Positions 1,601 through 62,541 of a stretch of 64,000 bases of DNA are shown here, piece by piece. Source of the DNA: Candidatus Hydrogenedentota bacterium (GTDB lineage Bacteria > Hydrogenedentota > Hydrogenedentia > Hydrogenedentales > SLHB01); assembly GCA_963668025.2 (NCBI GenBank), contig CAXXTH010000010.1, positions 224,001-288,000 of the forward strand. The letters are read 5' to 3'. The translations under genes and the position numbers were made by a program. The notes under the pieces are model-generated. The model was not told the DNA's origin and searched no databases. It saw only the letters and a program-made list of their open reading frames with translations. Positions within the stretch are counted from its first letter, which is position 1, and each line of letters opens with the position of its first letter.

Positions 1601-3855
1601 TATGGTTTTTCCTCAAGGTCCACCACGAGCATTTCATGCTCGTCAATTTGGGGTATGGTTACGCGCACATAACCTTGTTCCGTTTCGACTTTAGGCTCAG
1701 CTCCGGAAGGAACGATGGCCATGTGCTTGATCGCGGCAGGCAAACGCAGCGTGACATGGGCGTCATGAATGGGCGTGATTTCATCTAGCGTGTCCCGCTG
1801 GCTGCGTTCAAATAATCGCGTGGACATGGGGGGAAGGTTCAACAGATGGACCACCATGCGCTGATGTTCGTTCTGCCAGAAGGCGTTGCTGATGATCTGC
1901 GCGGGCGCTTCGACTTGCACCGGCGGCGGAGACAGTTGAATGAGTGAAGTGAGGATATGTTTGATCGAGCGGTATGGCGACTGGTAGTAACCTTGGGTCA
2001 CGTCGTCACATATATAGATGGCCTCGCCTGCTCCTATCCGATTGCGCACGATGGCCGGTTTGCCTGCGAGATCCGGCGCGGGTGCGAGGTAGGATTTGCC
2101 GGTTTCTGTAGCGAGCGCTTCCGCGCCCGGGAGCGCGCTGATCAGCGTCCGGCGCGTTTGCCAGGTGAAGCCGGGCAAGCCGTTGTTCAGCGCGGGCACA
2201 GACAACTCACGCGACCAATGCGGCGGTTCCAAATCCGTCTTATTCAAGGTGTCTTCGTAATGCGCGCCGAACAAATCGCCCAACCGGAAATCGTTCTGGC
2301 GGTTGCCCCACTCGTCATACAACGAGGTTTCATACGTGGCGATGATGCGCCCGCCTTCCTTGACATAGGTTCGAATGGCCTCGCAGGCCTCCGTGCTCAA
2401 ACAGGCCACATTGGGAAGCACCACCACCGGGAAGCGTTTCAACTCTTCCACGGTGAGCGTGTTGTCGAATAGATGGGCGTATTGCACATGCCCGGCCATG
2501 AGAATGGATACTAAGCCGAAGAAGGACTCCGTGAAGAGCCGGTCCGTGTTCCGGGGCTGATCTTCGCGGCGCTGCCGGAGCCCCCAAAAGTCGCGCGTGT
2601 TATTGCTAAGCACCACGCCGCAATACGGAACCCGTTCGCCGCCAAAATAGGCCTCGCGCGCTTTCAGTGCGGCATTGATTTGAGTATACATCTCCGGTTG
2701 TACGGCCGTGCCGGTGTGGACGCCGCCTTCCAGCCAAATTTGGCTGCCATACGTGAAGGCGCTCAATGCCGACATGCGCAATCCTAGCCCATCGCTGGGC
2801 GTATTGAGATTCCAAAGCGGTATGTGGGTGGATTCCGTGAACGTAGGCTGCCACATGTCGCATCGAATCGGATTCATGTCGGATGACATGGAAAGCCAGA
2901 ATGGCGTGTTTTGCGCTGGATTGCTAGGCTCGAGCCGGGCGTGGTTCGATGCGCCAATCACCAAGGGAAAGCGTGACAGAGGCACGGCTTCCCGCCAGCG
3001 GTTCCAGGAAAGGGGGGCAAACTGGCCTCCATGGTCGGCATCCGACACCAGCGGCGTCGTGAAATGCGTGTTGAACGAGAGGCTCACATGGGGATATTCG
3101 GCGCGCACTTGTTCGGCGACCCATGCGCCATTGGCGATATGCCGGTCATAACGCCAGCGGACCCAGCGGCGAAACGCATCTGATTCCCAGTCTTCAGTCA
3201 TGGGCCAATCCAAACCAGATTCTCTCTTCCAATCGGCAGCGCCATGGGCGAACGGCTCCCCCACTTGGTTATAGGATTCCATGCTGAAGCCATCGAGCCA
3301 GAGGCCGTCGGCTCCCAGCGCGCAGATTTCCTTGAGCGCCTGTACAAACAATTCCCGAAACTCCGAATCGAGTGACGCCAAGCGATATCCTGTGCGGTCT
3401 TCCCGGTCCCGGGGGGCATTGGGGTCGAAGCTGGCCGCCTGCCCGGGTGGAATATCCGCATACCGGGGATCTTTGGTGAACATGACTACAGGCGCATAGA
3501 CAATGACCCGGACGTTCTCGCGATGGCAGGCTTCGATGATTTGTTTTAAGGTATCCGGTTTAAAATTCCGCCATTCCGCGAAGGGGAAATATTTGGAAGG
3601 ATAGGTCGCGCCCCAGTCGTCGTCGAGGCCATGCACCATGACTGCGTTATAATCATGTTCGCGAATGACGGACATGAAGGCTTCAATATTGTTAGAGACC
3701 AGCGTGTGCGTCGCACCCAGCATACGCAGCTCATGCTTCGGGGAATAGGCTTCAGCCAGTTCCGATTCTGGCGACGCCCAGGCCAGGCTAGTAAGCACAA
3801 GAAAGGATATTGCCCATATCCTTGCCGCCAGCCCGAGATTCTGATGATTCCACAT
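1600..3855 (-). CDS. Secreted putative glycoside hydrolase (GHL6/GH42-like barrel plus beta-galactosidase trimerisation-like domain)
   Basis: Signal peptide; ADGLWLDG; VVVLPNVACLS...IRTYVKEGGRIIATYETSLYDEWG..DFRLGDLFG; VVHLLN near C-terminus. Confidence 0.7.
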   Translation of the reverse strand: MWNHQNLGLAARIWAISFLVLTSLAWASPESELAEAYSPKHELRMLGATHTLVSNNIEAFMSVIREHDYNAVMVHGLDDDWGATYPSKYFPFAEWRNFKPDTLKQIIEACHRENVRVIVYAPVVMFTKDPRYADIPPGQAASFDPNAPRDREDRTGYRLASLDSEFRELFVQALKEICALGADGLWLDGFSMESYNQVGEPFAHGAADWKRESGLDWPMTEDWESDAFRRWVRWRYDRHIANGAWVAEQVRAEYPHVSLSFNTHFTTPLVSDADHGGQFAPLSWNRWREAVPLSRFPLVIGASNHARLEPSNPAQNTPFWLSMSSDMNPIRCDMWQPTFTESTHIPLWNLNTPSDGLGLRMSALSAFTYGSQIWLEGGVHTGTAVQPEMYTQINAALKAREAYFGGERVPYCGVVLSNNTRDFWGLRQRREDQPRNTDRLFTESFFGLVSILMAGHVQYAHLFDNTLTVEELKRFPVVVLPNVACLSTEACEAIRTYVKEGGRIIATYETSLYDEWGNRQNDFRLGDLFGAHYEDTLNKTDLEPPHWSRELSVPALNNGLPGFTWQTRRTLISALPGAEALATETGKSYLAPAPDLAGKPAIVRNRIGAGEAIYICDDVTQGYYQSPYRSIKHILTSLIQLSPPPVQVEAPAQIISNAFWQNEHQRMVVHLLNLPPMSTRLFERSQRDTLDEITPIHDAHVTLRLPAAIKHMAIVPSGAEPKVETEQGYVRVTIPQIDEHEMLVVDLEEKP

Positions 3856-3899
3856 GACTCAAGACCTCCAAGGTTATAGGATAGCGCTTGTTTCGCTCC

Positions 3900-3972
3900 C
3901 GTAGCATGGGCGTCTCGCCCATGTGGCGATGGCTTATGACGTTTGCGTCATGGGCGAGACGCTCCTGCTACG
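3900..3972. repeat. GTAG-type REP doublet (inverted pair)
   Basis: cGTAGcatgggcgtctcgcccatg ... catgggcgagacgctcctgCTACg; same family recurs at about 16.2, 27.3, 52.4, 60.4 and 62.3 kb. Confidence 0.85.
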
Positions 3973-16230: not shown

Positions 16231-16402
16231 GGTGGGGCAAGCCCCACCCTACAACTCGCATGGGCGAGACGCCCATGCTACGGGAGTTGCAAATAGCATG
16301 TTAGAGGATATATTCGCGTTCATTCGCGTCCATTCGCGGTAAAAAACGAAACACTTTGGTTGCGGCTCTGCCGCGCTGTGTATTTTGTGGCCTCAAAATC
16401 CG
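16231..16402. repeat. Composite intergenic repeat: two REP types plus ttcgcg/tttgtggc-type short repeats
   Basis: ggtggggcaagccccaccCTAC, gcatgggcgagacgcccatgCTAC, ttcgcgttcattcgcgtccattcgcgg, ttggttgcggctctgccgc, gtggcctcaaaatcc; several units recur at 32381-32530. Confidence 0.75.
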
Positions 16403-26335: not shown

Positions 26336-26474
26336 GTTGGAGATTCCAGTGCGGCCGCCCGGCGGACCTGGTGGAAAAGGAAGCCTCGCGAAATCCGTGG
26401 CGTAAACACGAGATTCAACGCATGAGGTGATCTCTAGAGCCTGATATCATGGTTTCAAATGATAAACATAACCG

Positions 26475-27251
26475 ATAGGGGTAGGGAAGGCCGTTGGCCG
26501 GTCTCCCCTCCCTCCGAACCGTACGTGCAGATCTCCCGCATACGGCTCTCCAGTTGGTGGTCTTACCTCTTGGAGGATTGGCGAGCGGTTTCATAGGCTT
26601 TTGTAAGCTGAAAAGACCTATGGCCGCCAAAGTAAGCATTAGCTCAGTATTGATGGTCTGCTTATCCATCAAGCTGAACCATCGCCTTCCTTTCACCCCT
26701 TGTTTCAGGGCCGCCAACATGGGTTCCGTCCAGACGCAAGGACCGCTCGCTTCCAGTAGGGGCGGTTATCTCCGGCATGTTTAGAACTGCTTGCGCGGTT
26801 CACTGGTGACGGTTGTATTTCCTCGCATTCCGTACTCACCCATCCACCTTCCTACCGCCCTTCGCTCCACGCCCATTACGGCGTTTCCTCGCTACTATGG
26901 CGGCTCTGACTGCCGTTGGGTGGCTTCTCGCCTGCTTACTCCCAGCGGCTCTCACTGCTTCATGTACCCTGCCTTCCTGACCATTCCGTCTCCAACCACC
27001 CCATGTTCCCCCGCCATCGCTTTTGCACACGACCCCTCAGCGTGACCGGTTATTTCTAGGCTTCGCCATTTCCCAGCAGGCTCGCCGGAGCATCAGGCCG
27101 AATCGAGTTCGTTATCCTACGGACTAGTCATTCGCCTTCCGTTGCTCTCCACCCCGCCTCGCGGCGACGCAGTTACGGTCGGCTACAGGCCGGAGCGTGC
27201 ATGCCTGAAGAGGACTCACACCTCTCGGACAGCGTACACTCGCAGTCGCAC
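26475..27251 (-). mobile_element. Group II intron with internally deleted RT/maturase ORF (777 nt, non-autonomous)
   Basis: 5' GTGCG at 27251; domain V gagccgtatgcgggagatctgcacgtacggttc; domain VI ending cccctAT at 26475; IEP N-terminal remnant WTEPMLAALKQGVKGRRWFSLMDK fused to a degenerate C-terminal remnant (DHQY*ANAYF..GLFSL..ARQSSKR*). Confidence 0.9.
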
Positions 27252-27302
27252 TAGCATGGGCGTCTCGCCCATGCTAGTTGTAGGGTGGGGCTTGCCCCAC
27301 CG
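27252..27302. repeat. REP cluster between the intron and the IS
   Basis: tagcatgggcgtctcgcccatgcta plus GTAGggtggggcttgccccacc; near-identical to the reverse complement of 16231-16280. Confidence 0.85.
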
Positions 27303-27507: not shown

Positions 27508-28745
27508 GTACTCCGTAAGTCCTAAAAGGCTGAATAAAAAAGTGTATCTTGCCGATATATCCAGAGGGAGGAATGGGTCTTTCCTTTGGAGGATAACGGC
27601 AATGCCCACAAAGCGATACGTGGTTCGGTTGACAGAAGAGGAGCGCCAGCAACTCCATGGCTTGGTAAGCAAGGGCAAGGCGGCGGCATACAAAATCAGG
27701 CATGCCAACATCCTGCTCAAGGCGGATTGCGACGGGCCGAATTGGAAGGACGAACAGATAGCCGAAGCCTTTGGCTGCCACCGCACCACGGTGGAAGAGG
27801 TGCGCAAGCGGCTGGTTACGCAAGGCATCGAATCCGCCCTGGGCCGCAAGAAGCGGAAAACGCCGCCGACCCCGCGCCGACTCGACGGCGACGCCGAAGC
27901 CCGGCTGGTTGCCATCGCCTGCGGAAAAGCTTCGGAAGGCCGGGCGAAATGGACCATGCGGCTCTTGGCGGACAAACTGGTGGAATTGGGGATCGTGGAT
28001 TCGGTCTCGCACACGACCGTCTGGAAGACGCTTAAAAAAACGAACTCAAGCCGCACTTGCGGAAATGCTGGGTGATACCGCCGAAGCAGGATGGCGAGTT
28101 CGTGGCGGCGATGGAAGACGTACTTGAAGTCTATAAGCGCGGCCGGAACCGAGAGTATCCGCTGGTGTGCATGGACGAACAACCGACGCAGCTCTTGAAG
28201 GAGACGCGAACGCCCTTGCCCGCCGAACCTGGGGAACCGGCGAAACACGACTACGAATACGAGCGCAATGGCACAGCGGCGAACTTCATGTTCACCGCGC
28301 CATTGGAAAACTGGCGGCGGGTGAGTGTGCGGGAGCGCAAGACGAAAATCGATTGGGCACAGGAAATCCGCCAGCTTGTCGATACGGATTTTCCCGAGGC
28401 GTCAAAGATCGTGCTGGTGATGGACAACCTGAACACGCACACGCCGGGGGCGCTATACGAGGCGTTTGCGCCGCAAGAGGCGCGCCGAATTCTGGAGCGG
28501 CTGGAGATTCATTACACGCCGAAGCACGGGAGTTGGCTGAACATGGCGGAGATCGAGTTGAGCGTGTTCACGCGACAGTGCCTGGACCGGCGCATGCCGG
28601 ATCTGGCGACGTTGCGTTCGGAGGCGGTTGCGTGGAACACGAGCCGGAACGATTCGGGGATAGGTGTGGATTGGCACTTCACAACCTCCGACGCCCGGGT
28701 AAAACTAAAACGGCTTTATCCCTTAATTAAGGGCTGACAAGGTAC
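27508..28745 (+). mobile_element. IS630-family element
   Basis: Inserted in CTAG with TA duplication (27506-07, 28746-47); imperfect IRs gtactccgtaagtcc / gggctgacaaggtac; empty site visible in copy 2. Confidence 0.92.
27602..28737 (+). CDS. IS630 transposase, two ORFs probably joined by a -1 frameshift
   Basis: OrfA HTH (WTMRLLADK); slippery A7C at 28034-28041; OrfB DDE (CMDE, VMDNLNTH, TPKHGSWLNMAEIE). Confidence 0.88.
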
Positions 28746-31465: not shown

Positions 31466-32120
31466 AGCATGGCCTTTGGACGTGGTCATAGGGCCTGTGG
31501 CTCAGCCTGTTTGAGCCCATCGGCATCCCCTACACTCGTGTTGTTCCGCAACACCAAGGAAGGAGATGCCAATGAGTCGTTTCCGCAAATTATCACATGC
31601 GATATGGTATTGCCAATATCACATGGTATGGGCGCCCAAATACCGCTACCGGGTTTTGACGGGACCGGTGGGCAAGGAGGTCTACACCTGTATCCAAATG
31701 TTCTGTGGGCAGCAAGGATGCGGGGTGCTCGAATTGAATGTACAGCCCGAGCACGTGCATTTGCTTGTGATGGTTCCGCCAAAGGTGTCGATATCGGATC
31801 TGGCGGGCATTTTGAAGGGGCGTACGGCGATCCGGATATTCAAGCAGTTTCCGCATTTGAAAAAGAAGCCCTATTGGGGCAATCATTTCTGGGCGCCTGG
31901 GTATTGCGTGGATACCGTGGGGCTTAACGAAGAAATGATCCGCAAGTACGTGAAGTTCCAGGAAGAAGCGGAACGTCACGATGAACAGCTAAAATTGAAG
32001 TACTAAACCAAGCGGTGTTGCGGAACACAACCCACGCTTGCATCCTTTGGGTGCAAGCACTCAGCCACTCTCTGAGTGGCCAAAGCAAAGCCACGTCCTC
32101 TGGGCGTGGTTTTTTACTGG
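31466..32120 (+). mobile_element. IS200-like element (tnpA only); ends approximate
   Basis: Imperfect left hairpin agcatggcctttggacgtggt and right hairpin aagccacgtcctctgggcgtggttt flank tnpA. Confidence 0.7.
31572..32006 (+). CDS. tnpA: IS200/IS605 Y1 transposase
   Basis: YHMVWAPKYR, HUH motif EHVHL, FWAPGYCVDTVG, catalytic Y in IRKYVKFQ. Confidence 0.93.
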   Translation: MSRFRKLSHAIWYCQYHMVWAPKYRYRVLTGPVGKEVYTCIQMFCGQQGCGVLELNVQPEHVHLLVMVPPKVSISDLAGILKGRTAIRIFKQFPHLKKKPYWGNHFWAPGYCVDTVGLNEEMIRKYVKFQEEAERHDEQLKLKY

Positions 32121-62283: not shown

Positions 62284-62329
62284 GCATGGGCGTCCCGCCC
62301 ATGAACATGGCCGGGACGGCCATGCTACG
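62284..62329. repeat. REP doublet right of IS copy 2
   Basis: gcatgggcgtcccgcccatg-aa-catggccgggacggccatgCTACg. Confidence 0.8.
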
Positions 62330-62541
62330 GTTTGCCCGCCGCGATACGCCGGATCTCGGATTTCGTCAACGTGCGGTCGTAGATGCGGATATCGCGGATG
62401 CATATATCCCCTTTGTCTACCAATCAAGGAAACCCGGAATATTGATATCCGAATCCAGTTAAAGGCATGTTAAGGGCAGGCTACCAATGCATAGAACGCT
62501 TTTGGGGTTAGATTCCGTTGGCCGGGCTGGTAGGGGTATTC

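Follow-up and report, generated by a model that had tools for sequence, protein, structure and literature searches.

A protein-less group II intron in the foot of a repetitive extragenic palindrome points to hairpin-targeting relatives outside class C

Among group II introns, only class C (IIC) has been described as departing from sequence-specific homing, by way of terminator or attC hairpins (PMC4424553, PMC7306698). Its introns are characterized by a CGC triad and a shortened distal stem in domain V, a pairing of 3–4 bp at the first intron-binding site (IBS1), the lack of a second exon-binding site (EBS2), and a terminator stem-loop at the position of IBS2 (PMC1702495). For IIB-type introns, a source that describes attC-like hairpins preceding class E fragments states that a role of upstream structures has not been reported (PMC7923331). 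Classes IIE and IIF share two idiosyncrasies, namely an alpha' sequence in a terminal loop at the end of the Id3 stem-loop and a 5-nt loop in domain V (PMC3753933). Here we examine a 64,000-nt stretch of a Candidatus Hydrogenedentota genome (the window; contig CAXXTH010000010.1, positions 224,001 to 288,000, assembly GCA_963668025.2), which carries on its minus strand a group II intron without a protein gene, inserted in the foot of a hairpin of the repetitive extragenic palindrome (REP) type. The elements discussed first are the following.

26475..27251, minus strand: group II intron of 777 nt without an open reading frame (ORF), recognized from its sequence, the RF00029 match, four genome copies and the fold of domains I to III (D1–D3)
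27252..27276, minus strand: REP1 hairpin forming the 5' exon (TAGCATGGGCG-aga-CGCCCATGCTA), whose last five nucleotides, UGCUA, are IBS1
27280..27301, minus strand: REP2 hairpin (GGTGGGGCaaGCCCCACC + CTAC), first half of the REP doublet
26474, minus strand: first base of the 3' exon, a C, which is IBS3 and completes the CTAC foot
16231..16283, plus strand: intact REP2-REP1 doublet, the uninterrupted paralogue of the target (...CCCATGCTA-CGG)

The intron runs from 27251 to 26475 and has the ends expected of a group II intron (5' GUGYG, 3' AY), with GUGCG beginning at 27251 and AU at 26476-26475. Read on the minus strand, with ^ marking the junction, its 5' boundary is ...GCATGGGCGAGACGCCCATGCTA^GTGCGACTGCG... 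(also written ...gcatgggcgagacgcccatgcta^GTGCG), and its 3' end, ...CCCTACCCCTAT (...cccctAT), is followed by the exon CGGTTATG (cggtt). The insertion thereby splits ...CGCCCATGCTA^CGG, which is the CTAC foot of a REP hairpin. The domain V/VI model RF00029 matched 26475-26550 on the minus strand with 56.6 bits against a gathering score of 40, and was the sole gathering-level Rfam match within the window.

Joining the exons yields CCATGCTACGG, which occurs exactly at 16273-16283 (+), 62320-62330 (+) and 3899-3909 (-). With up to one mismatch, the window holds six matches, a number that none of 100 shuffled sequences attained (mean 1.23). By eye, the 50 nt that precede the intron differ from 16231-16280 in a single base, and that doublet consists of two hairpins, GGTGGGGCaaGCCCCACC-CTAC and GCATGGGCGagaCGCCCATG-CTAC. 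The original prediction had placed an intron inside the CTAC foot of a REP hairpin, and reading the sequence, the RF00029 match and the intact paralogues all bear it out. Its further points, that joining the exons restores a REP end found intact at 16272-16283 and 62320-62330 and that the upstream 50 nt match 16231-16280, agree with the exact matches and, bar that one base, with the alignment. The span it had singled out, 26470-27302, extends beyond the intron by a few exon bases at one end and takes in the REP doublet at the other. An empty site, in which 26474 adjoins 27252, was not seen in the contigs of the four sequencing runs compared.

A GTAG (CTAC) tetranucleotide at the foot is a hallmark of REPs, and the host genome (24 contigs, 6.1 Mb, 93.75% complete) is rich in such hairpins. 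We counted approximately 151 REP1 and 109 REP2 hairpins, the examples in the window lying between genes, with CTAC following 114 of the REP1 and 102 of the REP2 cores. The 12-mer CGCCCATGCTAC occurs intact 127 times and CGCCCATGC[CT]AC 180 times, and for GCCCCACCCTAC, the second hairpin type together with its CTAC foot, the count is 114. We call these repeats REP-type without linking them to a REP-associated tyrosine transposase (RAYT), because three candidate genes, single-copy Y1 transposases (PF01797; C9:149416, C17:774393 and C10:313783), lack REP1 and REP2 cores within 1.5 kb. The window itself encodes, at 31602-31958 (+), one of nine identical genome copies of an IS200/IS605-type Y1 transposase gene (PF01797, 135.6 bits).

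The genome contains four copies of exactly the 777-nt form, which are 97–100% identical, share the same exact termini and have flanks that are unrelated beyond the REP. Three of them follow GCATGGGCG(aga/tcc)CGCCCATGC(T/C)A and are continued by CG. Sites of the REP1 type make up only 180 of the 3422 TGC[TC]A^C sites in the genome (5.3%), and the chance of finding three of four copies there is small (binomial P ~6e-4).

To see where related introns insert, the tabulation that the original prediction had called for, we collected homologous loci. DNA matches were present in 19 of the 61 genomes searched (the host included), and in 13 of the 36 belonging to the same family. Relatives retrieved with an alignment of two full-length proteins (63% identical) amounted to 77 loci from named genomes, mostly of Planctomycetota (Pirellulales, Brocadia, Kuenenia); the remainder came from Hydrogenedentota, Lentisphaera marina, Acidobacteriota, Verrucomicrobiota and further groups, and plasmids of Cupriavidus and Paraburkholderia carry relatives at 53% identity. 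A D1–D3 profile matched 65 of the 77 loci and yielded their 5' junctions. After merging sites with identical last 16 exon bases and dropping loci with less than 45 nt upstream, we found 37 of 47 non-redundant sites to be preceded by a perfect hairpin of 6 bp or more that ended 0–6 nt (mostly 3–4 nt) before the junction. The background was 5–6%, both in shuffled exons (234/4700) and at other positions of the same flanks (240/3953). The Cupriavidus plasmid copy is likewise preceded by a hairpin. The feet of these targets read CTA, GA, GCTC and similar, with no T-run.

The repeat character of the target extends beyond the host. In a Pirellulales genome (G061), the uninterrupted target of the introns found there occurs 141 times, and in a Planctomycetaceae genome (G063) that of its own introns occurs 103 times, with no occurrence of the reversed pattern in either. 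Two of the three further genomes tested thus offer a REP family of over 100 copies as target. Together with the three of four host copies that lie in REP1, these repeats of 103–141 copies agree with the original suggestion that a REP family serves as a set of multicopy homing sites. Introns in distant hosts (L121-L124 in Phycisphaerales and L155 on the Cupriavidus plasmid) lie after a near-identical hairpin and foot (ACCGCG..CAGCGGTTTAG). In the Phycisphaerales genome, approximately 50 nt upstream are common to three sites, which may mean that the target in this case belongs to a larger repeat or a mobile element.

We folded the ribozyme and mapped its guide sequences, as had also been proposed. 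The RNAalifold consensus of six related sequences contains 110 pairs in D1–D3, 33 of them with compensatory changes on both sides (n=6 sequences). It places the parts of the intron as follows (nt numbers are intron positions).

26954..27246, minus strand: domain I, nt 6-298 (RNAalifold consensus)
26908..26953, minus strand: domain II, nt 299-344 (RNAalifold consensus)
26854..26904, minus strand: domain III, nt 348-398 (RNAalifold consensus)
26516..26548, minus strand: domain V, 33 nt, with an AGC triad at 26545-26547, an AC bulge, a 5-bp distal stem and the 5-nt loop GAGAU (fold and RF00029)
26475..26515, minus strand: domain VI, with a bulged A at 26482, the eighth base from the 3' end (fold)
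27071..27075, minus strand: EBS1, nt 177-181, in the terminal loop of the first Id hairpin (loop table and covariation scan)
26996, minus strand: EBS3, a G, nt 256 (pairs with the +1 exon base)
27195..27200, minus strand: alpha, GCACGC, nt 52-57 (covaries with alpha', by eye)
27025..27030, minus strand: alpha', GUGUGC, nt 222-227, in the terminal loop of the second Id hairpin (by eye)

The AGC triad that had been read from the sequence is thereby confirmed in the fold. EBS1 covaries with the exon throughout the lineage. Full complementarity between the 4-mer that starts at nt 177 and exon positions -1 to -4 is seen at 75% of 48 non-redundant sites, and 93% of the base pairs match. Contiguous pairing reaches at least 4 bp in 36 of the 48 sites and at least 5 bp in 28, with a mode of 5 bp and a mean of 4.2, against 1.3 when the exons are taken from foreign sites; 26 different EBS1 5-mers are involved. 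For EBS3, pairing with the first base of the 3' exon is seen in 98% of 52 rows (one row with an extrapolated 3' end left out), including seven of the eight in which that base is not C; it is C in 44 of 53 lineage rows. Because these two pairings covary and intact REP paralogues exist, the predicted junctions 27251/26475 are supported, and so, on sequence evidence, is the anatomy of the intron at the positions listed. The covariation scan for 4-mers over the 48 sites returned EBS1 alone and no EBS2, the next best candidates being invariant G-rich motifs at 35% or less. Two other stretches were considered for EBS1 and rejected on the consensus fold and the covariation scan: UAGUAGC lies in domain III, and CAUGGG is paired inside Id. 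The window copy has the EBS1 loop UGC-UGGGA-AAU; in copies 3 and 4 it is UGC-UGGCA-AAU, and UGGCA fits the REP foot UGCYA with perfect pairing. The alpha pairing, judged by eye, covaries as GCACGC/GUGUGC in our intron, GCACU/AGUGU in G009, ACCUU/AAGGU in G046 and ACGCU/AGCGU in G002.

From these results, we give a probability of roughly 0.75 to the reading that the intron is an ORF-deleted copy of a compact lineage outside class C, lacking an endonuclease domain, which chooses its targets in the manner of class C introns at the feet of REPs. Several observations weigh against it. Copy 3 of the host follows ...GACAAGGTACTA^CGA (UACUA^C) with no hairpin nearby, and it is one of 10 sites among the 47 that lack a 6-bp hairpin, a full-length G046 copy being another, even if several of the 10 carry 5-bp stems. 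The exact 21-mer target in Lentisphaera occurs only three times. In the window copy, EBS1 (UGGGA) has a G.G mismatch at -4 that leaves three contiguous pairs, and this copy may be poor at splicing. EBS1 pairing reaches into the last 1–3 bp of the target stem, and therefore the hairpin cannot be fully closed while it pairs. Finally, purifying selection against genic insertions could inflate the share of copies found in intergenic repeats.

An alternative is that the association with REPs is a matter of sequence only: EBS1 and EBS3 would happen to fit a conserved foot, no other neutral copies of that 6-mer would be as abundant as the REPs, and recognition would take no account of the hairpin. 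The tight covariation of EBS1 with the foot would be expected, as would copy 3. REP2 feet (CACCCTA^C), which misfit EBS1, are unused by the intron in its own genome, and IIE/IIF introns splice in vitro without EBS2 (PMC3753933). On such an account any part of a repeat could serve, yet 37 of 47 sites, which involve 26 different EBS1s and hairpins of unrelated sequence, have their junction 0–6 nt beyond the 3' arm. This constancy at the 3' foot, whatever the sequence of the hairpin, argues against a purely sequence-driven association. A specificity of 6 nt would moreover leave all 3422 candidate sites available, 5.3% of them REP1, yet three of the four copies lie in REP1. We consider an association by sequence only unlikely.

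The other half of the preferred reading, that hairpin targeting here belongs to a lineage outside class C, rests on the comparison of ribozyme and protein. The intron shares with class C the absence of EBS2 and a hairpin at the IBS2 position. In domain V it has AGC in place of CGC, and a distal stem of 5 bp rather than one 2 bp shorter than in IIA and IIB introns. Its IBS1-EBS1 pairing has a mode of 5 bp instead of 3–4 bp, and its targets are feet without a T-run instead of terminators or attC sites, unlike those of a class C family resident in the same genome (family A). The IIC-type Rfam models of D1–D4 (RF02001 and RF01998) gave no match to the intron or to a full-length relative at E<=0.01.

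The resident families serve as a direct comparison. Family A comprises approximately 16 copies of a 1897-nt intron with 99.6–99.8% identity, lying after hairpins followed by T-runs (hairpins judged by eye), for example at C10:216972-218868, 5 kb to the left of the window. In domain V it has CGC and a distal stem of 3 bp. Both families, A and B, match RF02001 at 122–144 bits and RF01998 at 47–53 bits, and are ordinary class C introns. One family A copy (C19:36859) is interrupted by approximately 1.3 kb. Two others (G000:C10:694485 and G000:C17:956626) lie directly after the domain VI hairpin of family B, one intron here using the 3' hairpin of another as a landing site. Further family B-type domain V/VI matches, at 47 bits, were found at G000:C10:12397, C10:708973 and C18:555013; no reverse transcriptase or maturase domain (PF00078, PF08388) was found near these three, which may be further protein-less introns.

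We next classified the full-length homologous intron-encoded proteins (IEPs), a step the original prediction had put forward. The tree held 24 proteins, with one locus lacking an intact ORF left out and only two IIC references, both from the host genome; class labels were taken from Miura et al. 2022, Table_3. The lineage and the Cupriavidus protein form one clade (Shimodaira-Hasegawa-like approximate likelihood ratio test, SH-aLRT, 95), with deep branches unresolved. This clade is separate from the resident IIC pair (99), from two class E references (100) and from class D, A and ML references, as had been called for by the claim of a non-class-C lineage, which also stands on the AGC triad, the full distal stem and the lack of an IIC-type D1–D4 match. 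The class E proteins of K. pneumoniae and S. meliloti form a clade of their own (support 100) to which the lineage does not belong. Identity of the lineage IEP is 36–38% to the resident IIC proteins and, over the reverse transcriptase (RT) domain only, 38% to class E. In a search of solved structures, the IEP scored 196 bits with 7uim and 195 bits with 6ar1, both IIC RTs, and 171 bits with the IIB protein of T.el4h, scores that do not discriminate class.

On K. pneumoniae plasmid NZ_CP034040 (L154, 400-420), an intron of class E by the Miura 2022 label begins directly after the palindrome tactgtttatatatacagt. This palindrome lies immediately upstream of umuD and may be a LexA box.

With respect to classes IIE and IIF, alpha' lies in the terminal loop of the second Id hairpin and covaries with alpha (by eye), and the domain V loop has 5 nt, reading GAGAU here and GAGAA, GAAAA or AAGAA in eight relatives. 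The apparent EBS2-IBS2 pairing of these classes was not detected over the 48 sites. The Kuenenia intron c-Ku.st.I1 has been placed with the core class F introns (PMC3552965), and the Kuenenia introns are listed as "Unclassified" in Table_3 of Miura et al. 2022; the Kuenenia loci of our lineage are presumably these published introns. Predicted fold and phylogeny thus support a ribozyme and a protein that are not class C and that carry IIE/IIF hallmarks.

An ordinary class C intron that inserts after an inverted repeat rather than a terminator would share the hairpin at the IBS2 position, the lack of EBS2, an endonuclease-less protein and a compact ribozyme (D1–D3 of approximately 400 nt). The best solved-structure matches are IIC RTs, class C introns are described as following terminators "or other inverted repeats" (PMC1702495), and the resident family A itself occupies REP1-like hairpins at 3 of its 16 sites (by eye). 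We nevertheless find this very unlikely. The AGC triad and unshortened distal stem, the 5-bp mode of EBS1 pairing and the missing T-run all speak against it, and RF02001 and RF01998 recognize the resident IIC families (47–144 bits) and not the intron or its full-length relative. The IEP is 36–37% identical to the resident IIC proteins and falls in a separate clade (SH-aLRT 95), and the alpha' position and domain V loop fit IIE/IIF.

We then turned to the missing protein, on which the original prediction had not remarked. The intron contains no ORF longer than 101 aa, and hence no RT/maturase gene in domain IV. In full-length relatives the protein matches TIGR04416 at 383–404 bits. BLAST blocks 1-591 and 591-777 of our intron align to the full-length G009 intron, between which approximately 1065 nt are missing, and positions 3158-3344 of L050, whose IEP stop lies at 3256, align to 591-777. 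Both ends of the lost gene can be located.

26661..26720, minus strand: remnant of the start of the IEP gene, 20 codons (MLAALKQGVKGRRWFSLMDK), in domain IV, with the deletion junction after nt 591 (alignment)
26563..26660, minus strand: remnant of the 3' end of the IEP gene, ~99 nt (alignment with L050)

The intron is a non-autonomous deletion derivative of a mobile group II intron, and the four genome copies are shown to be independent insertions of the deleted form. The deleted form has therefore multiplied, although no cognate protein gene is present in the assembly; a search with the G009 protein found at best 37–38% identity, to the proteins of other (IIC) introns. It is hardly credible that the copies are instead dead relics spread by recombination or duplication between REPs rather than by retromobility, for while the assembly lacks a cognate IEP and EBS1 of the window copy is mismatched, all four copies have identical exact termini and flanks unrelated beyond the REP, one sits at a non-REP site, their identity points to recent spread, and domains V and VI, EBS1 and EBS3 are intact. 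Reduced forms also occur elsewhere. Two relatives of approximately 770 nt (G032:C16:21313-22017 and G032:C11:156392-157096) have only a 144-aa ORF that matches IEP residues 321-447, the C-terminal part, and have had the reverse-transcriptase part deleted. A 918-nt protein-less relative lies at G002:C6:51576-52493 in a genome that is 100% complete, in which a search with the cognate protein gave no match at E<=1e-20.

The following mechanism would account for the preferred reading, that of a non-class-C lineage homing to REP feet. EBS1 (4–6 bp) and EBS3 (1 nt) pair with the exons flanking the junction, the approximately 5 bp of EBS1 covering the 2–4-nt foot and the last 1–3 bp of the stem, and a DNA hairpin occupies the place of the IBS2 pairing of IIA and IIB introns. 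The hairpins used are REP-type palindromic repeats of the host and not terminators, with entry at the 3' foot. In this genome, entry at CGCCCATGC(T/C)A^C splits the CTAC (= GTAG) foot, and in each genome EBS1 of the introns matches the foot of its own repeat. The hairpin itself is probably recognized, as in class C introns, and insertion would be into single-stranded DNA, probably at replication forks, as for other endonuclease-less introns. Deleted copies may have been moved in trans by a cognate protein now lost or unassembled, and the retained start of the IEP gene in domain IV could preserve the binding site of that protein, allowing such mobilization. Transcription might be read-through from an upstream minus-strand ORF (the upstream minus-strand ORFs had no Pfam match), and the REP sites may be harmless to the host. 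On the 5'-exon side, approximately 800 nt from the intron, an ORF at 28057-28737 (+) encodes a DDE_3 transposase domain (E 1.7e-25).

The GTAG tetranucleotide is thought to guide the REP transposase. A more far-reaching reading, on which we hold the balance to be even, is that a second lineage, unrelated to class C in ribozyme and protein, has swapped the EBS2-IBS2 pairing for recognition of a DNA hairpin and has specialized on REPs by tuning a 5-nt guide loop to the REP foot of its host, in Planctomycetota, Hydrogenedentota, Acidobacteriota, Verrucomicrobiota, Lentisphaerota and on plasmids of Betaproteobacteria. In hosts with GTAG-footed REPs, it would split that very tetranucleotide; the retroelement and the REP system would share, and may compete for, single-stranded hairpins; and protein-less derivatives would ride along in trans.

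That REPs are targets of mobile DNA is already known; what would be new is class-C-style hairpin targeting in a lineage that is not class C. In the literature consulted, no description of REP-foot homing by such a lineage was found; Simon et al. 2008, Dai and Zimmerly 2002 or Robart et al. 2007 may contain remarks on class F or on insertion at REPs. A gene-less intron and its relatives across phyla point to a little-described way of picking harmless, many-copy landing sites. If true, structure-guided targeting either arose twice or predates class C, and REP families and group II introns, two large bacterial repeat systems, are linked. The lineage would also supply natural introns of compact size in which a 5-nt loop discloses the target, a property of interest for retargeting. 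In annotation, such an intron is worth considering wherever a REP foot carries an unexplained insert of 0.8–2 kb.

Several described systems come close to this one. ORF-less group II introns of Thermosynechococcus elongatus were reportedly mobilized in trans, in work by Mohr et al. 2010. As there, protein-less derivatives have multiplied in the genome; unlike there, no cognate protein gene was found here. Closest in manner of targeting are the class C introns (B.h.I1 and the IIC-attC introns; PMC1702495, PMC4424553, PMC7923331), with which the lineage has in common an endonuclease-less protein, no EBS2, a DNA or RNA stem-loop at IBS2, a short IBS1 with a one-base IBS3, and insertions outside genes at many sites per genome. 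In contrast to these, the present lineage has AGC and a full distal stem, an EBS1 of approximately 5 bp that reaches into the base of the stem, REP-type hairpins without a T-run, no IIC-type Rfam D1–D4 match and a separate protein clade.

In ribozyme features, the lineage resembles class F (Pe.th.I2, Ge.ur.I1 and So.us.I2, compared by description; PMC3552965, PMC3753933), with its terminal-loop alpha', 5-nt domain V loop, small size and endonuclease-less IEP. It includes members from Kuenenia and Acidobacteriota, as the class F comparison set has c-Ku.st.I1 of Kuenenia. It differs in that an apparent EBS2-IBS2 pairing is described for class F and none was found here, and the passages on class F make no mention of hairpin or REP targets. 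For Ge.ur.I1-1, several IBS1 variants are reported in the 5' exon (PMC3753933), which in our own reading is what a repeat array might give.

In the use of REPs as multi-copy landing sites, finally, the lineage resembles the insertion sequences that target REPs (PMC1525189). A table in that study (Tobes and Pareja 2006) already gives "Group II intron 2/9" among the REP associations of Pseudomonas putida KT2440. As recorded in that passage, this is a minority association of a single intron, given with no class or mechanism, whereas here insertion at the hairpin foot is the rule of a lineage, with a guide that covaries with its target.

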